Shown piece after piece: positions 49,419 through 51,437 of a stretch of 64,000 nucleotides of DNA. The notes below the pieces were generated by a model. That model was not told the DNA's origin. It saw nothing but the letters and a program-made list of their open reading frames with translations, and searched no databases. A program made the position numbers and the translations under genes. The stretch spans positions 153,928 to 217,927 of the forward strand of contig JAMPHA010000001.1 of NCBI GenBank assembly GCA_023663615.1, given 5' to 3'. How positions within the stretch are numbered: the first letter of the stretch is position 1; each line of letters begins with the position of its first letter. Source of the DNA: Clostridium sp. (GTDB lineage Bacteria; Bacillota; Clostridia; Lachnospirales; Lachnospiraceae).

Positions 49419-50450
49419 ATGGAAAGGGTCATTTTTTGGAATAATAAAGGTGGAACTGGTAAAACTACGCTGGCATTTCAGATAATTGGTGAATATGCGC
49501 GTCAAAATAAAAACAAAAAGGTATTAGTTATAGATGTTTGTCCGCAGGCAAATTTGTCAGAGTTGTTGTTAGGAGGGTTAAATCAAGAAGGAAGTAAAGC
49601 ATTATTGATGCGTCAAGGAGCGAATCCGAGGGCAACAATTGGAGGATATTTTCAGATGCGTTTGCCATCTCCCTATAGTGTGCCTGTTTTTGACCCAAAA
49701 GATTTTTTGACAAGTCCAAAACAATATAATCAATACATAGAAGATAATATTGATTTGCTATGTGGAGATGCCATGCTCGAATTGCAGTCTAATGCAATTT
49801 CCACGCTAGCAAACAATCAAATACCGGGAACCAATACGTGGGTAGCGATTATAAATTGGTTAAATGATTTTATTAAAATAATTGAAGATGAATATGATGT
49901 AGTGTTTTTGGATGCCAATCCCAGCTTTTCAATGTACACGCAAATAGCAATTGCTACTTCGACGAAGGTAATATTGCCTGTCATGGCTGACGATTCATCA
50001 AGGCGGGCAATACAAAATGCATTTTCGTTGATATATGGATTAAAACTGCCATCTGAGATTTATAGTAAATATGCTTTCGCTGAAAAATTAAAAGAAGTAG
50101 ATATGTCCTTGCCTAAAGTTTATTTGATATTAAAAAATCGTTTAACTCAATATATGGGTGCGGCTTCAGCATATGCGACTGTTTTAGGCGCGATTGATAA
50201 AGATGTTCTTTCGCTATTGAAGACGCATCCGATGATTTTCTCCTTTGAATCTTTGCAGAGTGGTATTATAGATGTGCGAGATTTTCAGACAACAGGAGTG
50301 GTTTCGGCGGCACGAGGTTGTCCGTTTCAGAGACTACGGGCAGGAAGATTAGATTTGATGGGAAAAAGAGTTATAGTGAAAGAAGATTATAGAAAAAATT
50401 GTATAGAACATATCGAAAAGATTGTAAGCAGGTTAAATAAAGATTTATAA
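49419..50450 (+). CDS. ParA/MinD-superfamily P-loop ATPase (343 aa), orphan (no ParB)
   Basis: Deviant Walker A NNKGGTGKTT, then VLVIDVCPQANLS and Walker B-like VVFLDANPS. GGAAGGAG RBS before the ATG at 49419. The tracked ATG at 49380 lies inside the promoter. Confidence 0.75.
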   Translation: MERVIFWNNKGGTGKTTLAFQIIGEYARQNKNKKVLVIDVCPQANLSELLLGGLNQEGSKALLMRQGANPRATIGGYFQMRLPSPYSVPVFDPKDFLTSPKQYNQYIEDNIDLLCGDAMLELQSNAISTLANNQIPGTNTWVAIINWLNDFIKIIEDEYDVVFLDANPSFSMYTQIAIATSTKVILPVMADDSSRRAIQNAFSLIYGLKLPSEIYSKYAFAEKLKEVDMSLPKVYLILKNRLTQYMGAASAYATVLGAIDKDVLSLLKTHPMIFSFESLQSGIIDVRDFQTTGVVSAARGCPFQRLRAGRLDLMGKRVIVKEDYRKNCIEHIEKIVSRLNKDL

Positions 50451-50487
50451 CTGCATATATGATCGCAAGTATATATCGCAGAAGAAT

Positions 50488-50970
50488 ATGAGTGAGGAAA
50501 TGGAATATATGAGAGAAGATCGGGTTTATCACGGCAGTAATCTGATTGTGGAGAAGCCGCGTGTCATGATAAATGGTCACTACAAGGATTTTGGGTATGG
50601 TTTTTATTGCACAAAATTGGAAAAGCAGGCAAAGCGGTGGGCATTAACGAAAAGAGGTGATTCGGTCGTGAATTGTTATGTTTATACGCCGAATGCCAGT
50701 CTGAAATATTGTGTTTTTGAACAAATGTCAGAAGAATGGCTGCAGTTTGTTGTTGATTGTAGAAGCGGTATGGAACATCCATATGATATTGTGGAAGGTC
50801 CGATGGCGGACGATCAGATATGGGATTATGTGGAAGATTTTATGGATGGTAATATTTCTAAGGAAGCATTTTGGGAATTGGTAAAATTCAAATATCCGAC
50901 CCATCAAATCGTTTTTTGCACGGAAGCCGCATTGCAGACCTTGCGTTTTGAAGGGAGTTCTATATTATGA
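50488..50970 (+). CDS. DUF3990-like protein (160 aa); possible H-Y-E ADP-ribosyltransferase fold
   Basis: RVYHGSNLIVEKP...DFGYGFYCTKLEKQAKRWA...IVEGPMADDQIWD...THQIVFCT matches my recollection of the DUF3990 family. The family call is from memory. Confidence 0.65.
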   Translation: MSEEMEYMREDRVYHGSNLIVEKPRVMINGHYKDFGYGFYCTKLEKQAKRWALTKRGDSVVNCYVYTPNASLKYCVFEQMSEEWLQFVVDCRSGMEHPYDIVEGPMADDQIWDYVEDFMDGNISKEAFWELVKFKYPTHQIVFCTEAALQTLRFEGSSIL

Positions 50971-51437
50971 AAAATCGGTATTTTGAAAATGAGGAGATTA
51001 TGCCGAACGATTTATTTTTTGTTTGCTATATGATTGAACGTGTTGCAAGAAAGCTGCATCAAAAAAATCAGTATGTTGTAAATACGATCGGCAGGGATGC
51101 GATGTATCATCTGCTCAGTGTCGCAAATGTCATTCATTCGCAGAACCCGTTGGATGTGGAAGACGACTGGGTGGAAGCATATGACCTTCATTACGGAGAT
51201 TTTGACAGGTGTGATGTGGATAAAGAATTAGTATCGAAGCTGCCGACGGCAGTGCAAATGGGAAAAGTTTATCAAAGGCTGATTAGGGATACCGCTTTGC
51301 AGAGTGAGGATGAGGTAGAAGGGATTTTCCGGGTTTACAATAGCGATATATGCAGCGTGATCGACAATTACAATTGCAGTGCATACTTTGAGCCATCTTA
51401 TGTGATCGCAAGGGCGTATCAGGAAGGCGGGTTTTAG
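50967..51437 (+). CDS. DUF3791-like protein (156 aa)
   Basis: LFFVCYMIERVARKLHQKNQYVVNTIGRDAMYHLLSVANVIHSQNPLDVEDDWVEAY resembles DUF3791, which commonly neighbours DUF3990. The ATG overlaps the DUF3990 stop (ATGA 50967-50970). Confidence 0.6.
   Translation: MKNRYFENEEIMPNDLFFVCYMIERVARKLHQKNQYVVNTIGRDAMYHLLSVANVIHSQNPLDVEDDWVEAYDLHYGDFDRCDVDKELVSKLPTAVQMGKVYQRLIRDTALQSEDEVEGIFRVYNSDICSVIDNYNCSAYFEPSYVIARAYQEGGF

Follow-up and report, generated by a model that had tools for sequence, protein, structure and literature searches.

Three bodies of earlier work bear on the locus described here. In the DarT-DarG toxin-antitoxin system, the toxin DarT has an ADP-ribosyltransferase (ART) fold and uses nicotinamide adenine dinucleotide (NAD+), and the antidote DarG, a macrodomain enzyme, takes the modification off again. 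The domain DUF3990 is listed in the ART clan of Pfam (PMC7955679) and serves as the toxin at the C-terminal end of Rhs5, a type VI secretion system (T6SS) protein of Serratia whose gene is followed by an immunity gene (PMC4524185). The PADLOC database also holds a two-gene entry, PDC-M10, among its computational "phage defence candidates" (PDC; bioRxiv 10.1101/2024.09.26.614923). Our locus lies in a 64,000-nucleotide stretch of Clostridium sp., family Lachnospiraceae (contig JAMPHA010000001.1, positions 153,928 to 217,927 of the forward strand; hereafter the window). There, a gene for a ParA-like ATPase is followed by a DUF3990 gene and by a gene for a 156-amino-acid (aa) protein, here called the partner. 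An initial annotation of the window had proposed that the three form one undescribed system. We find instead that the locus is made of two modules, the ATPase gene and the DUF3990-partner pair; the pair itself was already catalogued as PDC-M10.

Most of the anatomy given in the initial annotation stands. The three genes are co-directional open reading frames (ORFs; coordinates in Table 1), with Pfam domains AAA_31 and CbiA in the first and DUF3990 in the second, and the start codon of the third overlaps the stop codon of the second in the letters ATGA, as reported. A terminator scan found no terminator-like site between the three genes. The strong promoter said to precede them was recovered in a promoter scan as a sigma-70-like site (TTGACA-17-TACAAT, 49360-49388) that matched 11 of 12 positions; it was the best of its region, and the regional total of promoter-like sites was no higher than in shuffled sequences. 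The three genes are presumably co-transcribed from this single promoter. The gap of 37 nucleotides (nt) between the ParA-like gene and DUF3990 is correct to the first ATG but becomes 58 nt to the start that homologues and the NCBI gene call support. Profile searches likewise upheld the domain calls AAA_31/CbiA, DUF3990 and HTH_3, the last in the convergent XRE-family regulator gene that does follow the trio, but not the identification of the third protein as DUF3791, since the partner had no Pfam match even at an E value of 10 or below.

Taken as a pair, DUF3990 and the partner correspond closely to the catalogued candidate. DUF3990 matched the PDC-M10A profile (PDLC04411) over 151 of 156 profile positions (E = 7.3e-76) and the partner matched PDC-M10B (PDLC04416) over 156 of 156 (E = 1.7e-77), with the two genes on the same strand and overlapping by 4 nt. 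Given this match and the published placements of DUF3990 in the ART clan and at the tip of an Rhs protein, the pair cannot be called undescribed. The accompanying remark that it has no established function agrees with the literature we searched, in which we found no experiment on PDC-M10 and nothing on PF13151 or PF12668.

To see how the pair is conserved, we scanned for close relatives of the partner in one genome per GTDB species, a scan limited by its search pattern, and took neighbourhoods from the 80 best loci. Such relatives occurred in 420 genomes, mostly of Lachnospiraceae, and in 61 of the 75 assessable loci the gene directly before the partner was DUF3990. Beside a full-length partner in the 75 assessable species, DUF3990 was intact in 51, degraded in 10 and absent in 14 (24/75 degraded or absent), and the ATGA overlap was preserved in 47 of the 51 intact pairs. 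Conserved coupling and such one-sided decay, of DUF3990 with the partner gene kept, are features of a type II-like toxin-antitoxin module, and we read the pair as a toxin with its antidote. The frequent DUF3990 variant P0247, in all 10 of the places shown, has its partner beside it, lacI-type and sigma-factor genes on either side and no ParA. The close relatives behave as small cassettes at scattered, ordinary chromosomal sites, which fits a selfish toxin-antitoxin module.

More distant DUF3990 genes differ in that two small DUF3791-type ORFs replace the single 156-aa partner. Relatives at 35 to 37% identity were found on 87 plasmid records. On Moraxella plasmids (L250), for instance, DUF3990, a small ORF and DUF3791 lie between hsdM and hsdS of a type I restriction-modification (R-M) operon; on C. 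botulinum pCLI (L251), DUF3990 is flanked by two small DUF3791-type ORFs; and on a Parabacteroides plasmid (L252), DUF3990 again has two small flanking DUF3791-type ORFs, inside a polysaccharide biosynthesis locus. Judged by gene order and conservation, DUF3990 and its partner look like a toxin-antitoxin or abortive-infection-type cassette. The initial annotation had seen that grammar in all three genes; it holds for the pair but not for ParA as a component.

The association of the pair with the ParA-like gene is rare. Within the 80 best loci, ParA lay upstream of the pair in 2 of the 62 pair loci with enough upstream sequence to judge (L020 and L021). Starting from ParA, we found the pair downstream in 1 of 52 metagenomic loci (L160), the 52 being those of 80 metagenomic ParA loci whose downstream sequence runs to 1 kb or more, and in 1 of 20 when ParAs were at least 79% identical; in viral contigs the count was 0 of 58 assessable (of 63 IMG/VR contigs). 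Every linked trio (the window, L001-L003/L160, L020 and L021) lies directly after spoVAC, at one chromosomal site. The ParA linkage is thus largely specific to one lineage and not a general feature of the pair, much as the initial annotation had said would count against its proposal.

Two loci at which the pair is intact carry deletion scars of the ParA-like gene. One, L014, is syntenic with the window (~85% nt identity), has the order spoVAC, 247 nt, DUF3990, partner, 75 nt, araC, araA, and lacks window positions 46950-50518, which hold the gene matching PADLOC candidate PDC-S01, a truncated helix-turn-helix (HTH) ORF and ParA. Its 247-nt spacer retains a ParA-type promoter (scar at L014 6306-6543). 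In L023, a ParA-type promoter, a ribosome-binding site (RBS) and the last 16 ParA codons (IREDIGKVVARMNQDL*) stand before an intact pair (scar at L023 6330-6490). With the ParA promoter kept before an intact pair at both loci, the spoVAC site must have held the trio originally, and at least two later deletions removed ParA but spared the pair. In one of the linked trios, L021, the converse is seen: DUF3990 is frameshifted, and ParA and the partner are intact. The locus therefore holds two independent cassettes, juxtaposed in one gut Lachnospiraceae lineage only.

These data also bear on whether the trio could still be a true three-component system, in which the ParA-like ATPase would sense or regulate, for example through release from an operator of GTAC repeats (described below) on a trigger, and DUF3990 and the partner would be the effector. 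The single strong promoter, the short distances between the genes and the lack of a terminator among them would suit such a system, as would the recurrence of the trio in the window, L001-L003/L160, L020 and L021, and RelB antitoxin and ParE toxin genes directly downstream of close ParA relatives (82 to 85% identical) in 9 other loci hint that ParA may anchor toxic cargo. However, the co-occurrence counts given above, the confinement of all trios to one site after spoVAC, the two losses of ParA beside an intact pair, the frameshifted toxin beside the intact ParA of L021, and the absence of any PADLOC match for ParA except a chance-level one to AbiO together make a three-component system improbable. 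With moderate confidence, we favor two autonomous cassettes that share one transcription unit in this lineage, the pair being toxin-antitoxin module PDC-M10. The independence of the modules is much firmer than the chemistry proposed below.

The prediction of a toxin begins with the DUF3990 protein itself, which matched the Pfam model (PF13151) at 7e-51, with 172.3 bits against a gathering cutoff of 32.2. Its AlphaFold model had a predicted local distance difference test score (pLDDT) of 86.5, and the top Foldseek matches of that model in the PDB were RES toxin, PARP4 and PARP1, RhsP2 toxin, cholix toxin and exotoxin A, the RES structures 6gw6 and 9r35 being among the top two; every one of these proteins has the ART fold. 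A PDB profile search with DUF3990 returned chance-level nitroreductase matches only. The motif H8-G-S, Y33 (in GFYCT) and E96 (in IVEGP) were invariant across 22 homologues and located on predicted strands, in agreement with an ART-fold triad on strands 1, 2 and 5, an arrangement that we take to correspond to the H-Y-E of PARP and diphtheria-toxin-type enzymes. From fold and residues, we predict that DUF3990 is an ART-fold toxin with H8, Y33 and E96 as candidate catalytic residues.

The partner offers fewer handles. The DUF3791 model gave sub-threshold matches in 8 of 28 distant partner relatives, over the N-terminal ~55 residues (best E of 0.0094 in that scan); protein P0486 reached 22.2 bits and an E value of 1.4e-4 against a 25-bit gathering threshold; and hhalign of the partner against a bona fide DUF3791 protein gave a weak match at residues 18-64. 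The DUF3791 label for the partner is best taken as a statement of remote homology, for the N-terminal half only, and not as a domain call. A profile search placed 725 cluster representatives in the partner family, and across distant partners R28, G77 and P93 were the only invariant residues. Because invariant residues are few and form no catalytic-looking constellation, the partner is more plausibly a binder than a DarG-like enzyme. We predict that it is the antitoxin of DUF3990, a reading also favored by two database proteins that join a DUF3990 domain and the partner domain in a single chain (P0407, 307 aa, and P0481, 224 aa).

A mechanism consistent with these predictions would run as follows. 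Free DUF3990, as an H-Y-E-type enzyme, would most likely use NAD+, either to attach ADP-ribose to a macromolecule that the cell cannot do without (nucleic acid or part of the translation machinery) or in a reaction that depletes NAD+, and its activity would lead to growth arrest. The partner would be made by translational coupling through the ATGA overlap and would most likely neutralize DUF3990 through direct binding and not through enzymatic reversal. If the toxin were set free, for instance because phage infection halts partner synthesis or the locus is lost, it would stop the cell. The ParA-like ATPase is a separate, probably self-regulated single-gene unit, with its own promoter and half-sites probably bound by the protein itself, that travels in prophage immunity regions and at island boundaries with variable cargo downstream.

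The pair might also have a toxic role between cells, as an orphaned polymorphic-toxin tip with its immunity gene, and not as an intracellular toxin-antitoxin or defense module. The T6SS Rhs protein with DUF3990 as its C-terminal toxin and an immunity gene downstream (PMC4524185) speaks for this, RhsP2 toxin is among the fold matches, and partners without an intact toxin are frequent (24/75 species), as is the case for orphan immunity genes. We nevertheless consider such an interbacterial role quite improbable, since the 153-aa DUF3990 is a bare domain in which we found no Rhs/YD, LXG, delivery or signal region, secretion genes were not seen among the neighbours of the pair, and the start-stop overlap and toxin-first order are typical of toxin-antitoxin operons. 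The least probable of the explanations that we weighed is that the pair is not toxic at all, DUF3990 being a regulatory or housekeeping NAD+-utilizing enzyme and the partner its accessory subunit. Mostly ordinary metabolic and regulatory neighbours and the placement of the Parabacteroides set within a polysaccharide locus would be in keeping with it. The patchy distribution (420 species-representative genomes in the pattern scan) at scattered sites, the frequent decay of DUF3990 with the partner kept, the sets found within an R-M operon and on plasmids, and the use of DUF3990 as an Rhs toxin tip (PMC4524185) all speak for a toxin.

Several observations count against the toxin-antitoxin reading or against the separation of the two modules, and all of the support for both is computational. 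The decay census was anchored on the partner, so that intact DUF3990 genes lacking a partner fell outside the sample. The 119 nearest neighbours of the pair (32 species) comprised 170 Pfam families, none recurring more than 4 times, and few PADLOC matches. The enrichment near defense genes raised in the initial annotation was not seen among these 119 neighbours with PADLOC and Pfam, nor was enrichment in mobility genes, a weak negative without proper background control; the neighbours are ordinary, heterogeneous genes and lend no independent support to a defense role in Lachnospiraceae. The Foldseek matches are modest (E of 5e-3 to 0.2, probability 0.6-0.98, template modeling score 0.4-0.47). 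The structure prediction of the partner reached a pLDDT of 36, which leaves neutralization by binding without structural support, and the single-chain proteins P0407 and P0481 could be frameshift artefacts at the ATGA junction. Finally, no separate promoter for the pair is obvious in the window, where it lies 37 to 58 nt behind ParA, and several lineages at species level (the window, L001/L160, L020 and L021) retain the trio, so that some functional coupling is possible.

The other module is a member of the ParA/MinD superfamily. Its Pfam matches are AAA_31 (5.5e-20) and CbiA, it carries the deviant Walker A, A' and B motifs of ParA/MinD proteins, and KGGTGKT at residues 10-16 is invariant among 16 homologues. 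It matched PHROG 164 at 7.6e-38, and PDB profile matches include delta (2oze), 3pg5 and Soj, while the C-terminal 146 aa searched by themselves gave no PDB match. On the NCBIfam model ParA_partition (NF041546) it scored 46.9 bits against a cutoff of 180, and every other partition equivalog was also below its cutoff. The RBS is GGAAGGAG, nine bases 5' of the start codon. We found 3817 homologues at E ≤ 1e-5, the best 120 at 70-91% identity. Exact-sequence look-ups of the window ParA and of the 160-aa DUF3990 ORF gave no match, and homologue-based look-ups were substituted.

As had been claimed, this deviant-Walker-A ATPase lacks a ParB: neither ParB nor another centromere-binding partner gene was found in the window, and clustering of the +/-2 neighbours of 143 ParA loci revealed no conserved partner. 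One and the same ParA protein (P0072) stands alone beside varying integrase-bearing elements. In 19 viral loci (L095, L100, L113 and 16 further), the gene directly before ParA, read in the same direction, encodes a CI-like S24 repressor and diverges from a Cro-like gene. These are lambdoid prophages of Proteobacteria, in which the ~60% identical family member follows the CI-like repressor behind a terminator and promoter of its own. The spot beside CI in lambdoid prophages is where accessory exclusion genes sit. A megablast search with an enterobacterial homologue against complete E. coli genomes gave no match. The ParA-like ATPase is thus an autonomous single-gene unit, common in prophages and mobile islands.

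Further close Firmicutes relatives of ParA have other neighbours: a fused C5-methylase/HaeIII endonuclease downstream or an RVT_1 reverse transcriptase upstream. Loci with alternative ParA cargo comprise L171-L178 and related metagenome loci, and L161, L162 and L164. In several gut metagenome contigs (L173-L176, L178, L180 and L182), the ParA ORF is in two parts, one of 54 aa from the N terminus and one of 293 aa that holds the rest, which may be a frameshifted pseudogene of one species or an assembly error.

The promoter of the ParA-like gene is overlaid with repeats. GTAC-centred half-sites overlap it at 49346, 49356, 49368 and 49381, with an extra TGTACA at 49249, and the density of GTAC upstream of 36 Firmicutes-type ParA genes was 2.9 per 120 nt against a background of 0.3. 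Across phyla, half-sites flank and overlap the -35 and -10 elements of ParA-family promoters (window 49240-49395; L001, L020, L021, L159-L238, L095, L100 and L129). Depending on the lineage, these half-sites are GTAC, GTCC/GGAC or GGTAAAC-type, or they are ACGTCCAT palindromes. L014 and L023, from which ParA was deleted, have lost all GTAC sites. By their arrangement the GTAC repeats resemble an operator, and because no other gene travels with ParA, the ParA-like protein itself is the probable binder.

Partition genes beside toxin-antitoxin modules are typical of plasmids, and the layout of this locus could accordingly be what is left of a region that once maintained an integrated plasmid or a mobile island, with a partition-type ATPase next to an addiction module that acts by post-segregational killing. 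Close ParA relatives adjoin integrases or MobL, RelB/ParE, the R-M fusion and the reverse transcriptase, the ParA family was matched on 370 plasmid records and DUF3990 on 87, and the stretch is AT-rich. Yet the island of the window has no ParB, replication gene or integrase among its genes and no flanking repeats, the locus is chromosomal and syntenic across species, and ParA falls far under the curated partition-ATPase thresholds. Moreover, the highly similar plasmid matches that we inspected were 5.9-kb circles that consist of a lambdoid immunity region only (several Salmonella Infantis "plasmids"; L249, NZ_CP148796.1). A plasmid relic is unlikely on this evidence, and we keep to two separate cassettes.

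The distribution of the ATPase raises one more idea, namely that it is a new self-regulating DNA-binding NTPase for exclusion of rival elements or for defense, and possibly also an anchor that co-regulates toxic cargo, the trio being one ParA-gated example. The basis for this is identity of at least 60% from Lachnospiraceae to enterobacterial prophages, a promoter of its own with lineage-specific half-sites, the absence of a partner gene, and, under the anchor reading, cargo that is the DUF3990 pair here and RelB/ParE or an R-M fusion elsewhere. We regard it as a long shot; the literature we searched held nothing on ParA-like ATPases in superinfection exclusion or anti-phage defense.

The surroundings of the two modules are summarized in Table 1. 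The AT-rich island that the initial annotation had pointed out is real, with GC falling to 0.32-0.44 between 48.5 and 52 kb from about 0.50-0.55 on either side. The site after spoVAC is a small, variable AT-rich insertion hotspot, which in this genome has also gained the PDC-S01 and XRE genes. A search for island boundaries found no tRNA genes between positions 40 and 60 kb of the window and no convincing flanking direct repeats.

Table 1. Features of the two modules and their neighbours, in window coordinates
Feature	Position	Strand	Remarks
AAA_14 + DUF4143 ATPase, neighbour of both modules	47358-48755	+	Pfam; PADLOC candidate PDC-S01, 1.2e-106
ParA promoter and putative operator	49346-49391	+	-35 TTGACA 49360-49365; -10 TACAAT 49383-49388
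ParA/MinD-superfamily ATPase, 343 aa	49419-50450	+	deviant Walker A K10-GGTGKT-16 (KGGTGKTT)
DUF3990 gene, 153 aa	50509-50970	+	longest ORF from 50488; start 50509 per homologues and NCBI call; RBS GAGGAA
Partner gene, 156 aa	50967-51437	+	ATGA overlap with DUF3990 stop at 50967-50970; PADLOC PDC-M10B
Terminator-like hairpin, weak	51428-51447	+	end of pair; 6-bp stem, 3 GC pairs; not above regional chance expectation
XRE-family regulator, neighbour of both modules	51545-52018	-	convergent; Pfam HTH_3 1.9e-16 and ~90-aa C-terminal domain

The PDC-S01 ATPase lies in an insertion that is specific to the window and separates spoVAC from the ParA promoter, and its gene is missing from L014, L001, L020, L021 and L160. 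In one preprint, a PDC-S01 member was assayed and was not among the four systems protecting against T4, T5 or T7. At the left edge of this insertion, the region 47001-47161 contains a near-threshold match to the Rfam Clostridiales-1 RNA (RF01699; 47013-47128; E = 1.5e-7, 44.9 bits where the gathering score is 48), bracketed by exact direct repeats of 16 nt (47001/47127 and 47019/47146, spaced by ~126 nt). At 48873-49034 (minus strand), divergent from the ParA promoter, a 53-aa ORF matches HTH_26 over profile positions 10-63 only and has the look of a truncated Cro/C1-type regulator. The XRE gene was considered as an antitoxin or regulator of the pair and ruled out: it is convergent, it is missing from the syntenic relative L014, and only 2 of 80 loci had a relative no more than 7 kb from the pair.

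If the toxin-antitoxin reading is true, DUF3990 and its partner would add an ART-fold family beside DarTG, ParST, RES-Xre and CmdTAC. The pair is very common in gut Lachnospiraceae and has distant forms in Bacteroidales, on clostridial plasmids and in a type I R-M operon, and the target of DUF3990 is worth finding. An attractive three-gene reading is corrected in the process: the ATPase is a separate, widely travelled gene, and its function is the more unusual loose end of the locus.

Set against known systems, the ATPase shares its deviant Walker A, A' and B motifs and its ParA/MinD fold family with type I ParABS systems, from which it differs by having no ParB or adaptor gene, by its score on the NCBIfam partition equivalog (46.9 versus 180 bits), and by a family that is usually found in integrated prophages beside CI. 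Tested as centromere-like repeats, its iterated GTAC half-sites overlap the promoter and are operator-like in appearance. The missing ParB or adaptor and the scores below curated partition models rule out a classical ParABS system. Another likeness, going by description only, is to ParI, an orphan ParA from a genomic island of Pseudomonas putida KT2440, which is described as destabilizing IncP-7 plasmids (Miyakoshi 2012, cited in PMC8544851). Both are ParA-family ATPases without ParB on horizontally acquired DNA; the window protein has in addition a C-terminal extension of ~90 aa and operator repeats of its own. As so described, ParI would by analogy be a precedent for an anti-plasmid or exclusion role of an island-borne orphan ParA.

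For the pair, Rhs5-CT/RhsI5 of the Serratia marcescens T6SS offers the same toxin domain family with a small protective gene after it (PMC4524185), whereas DUF3990 in the window stands alone, without an Rhs delivery region or secretion context. In the NAD+-degrading Xre-RES/MbcTA systems, the RES toxin is likewise small, ART-related and held by a small partner, and it is a fold match to DUF3990. Here, however, DUF3990 has no RES match in Pfam, its predicted triad is H-Y-E and not R-E-S, and the antitoxin is not Xre; with DUF3990 as the only Pfam match and a nearby XRE gene that is convergent, missing in L014 and unlinked to the pair elsewhere, membership of Xre-RES is ruled out. With DarTG the pair shares its order, an ART-fold toxin first and an overlapping antidote second, and predicted NAD+ use. 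It differs in that the partner has no macrodomain or any other Pfam domain and few invariant residues and in that DUF3990 and DarT are different Pfam families, and the absence of a macrodomain antitoxin by Pfam rules out DarTG membership. The closest counterpart is PDC-M10 in PADLOC-DB v2, a two-gene bioinformatic candidate of which ParA is not a component, and whose M10A and M10B both proteins of the pair match end to end, adjacent and on one strand.

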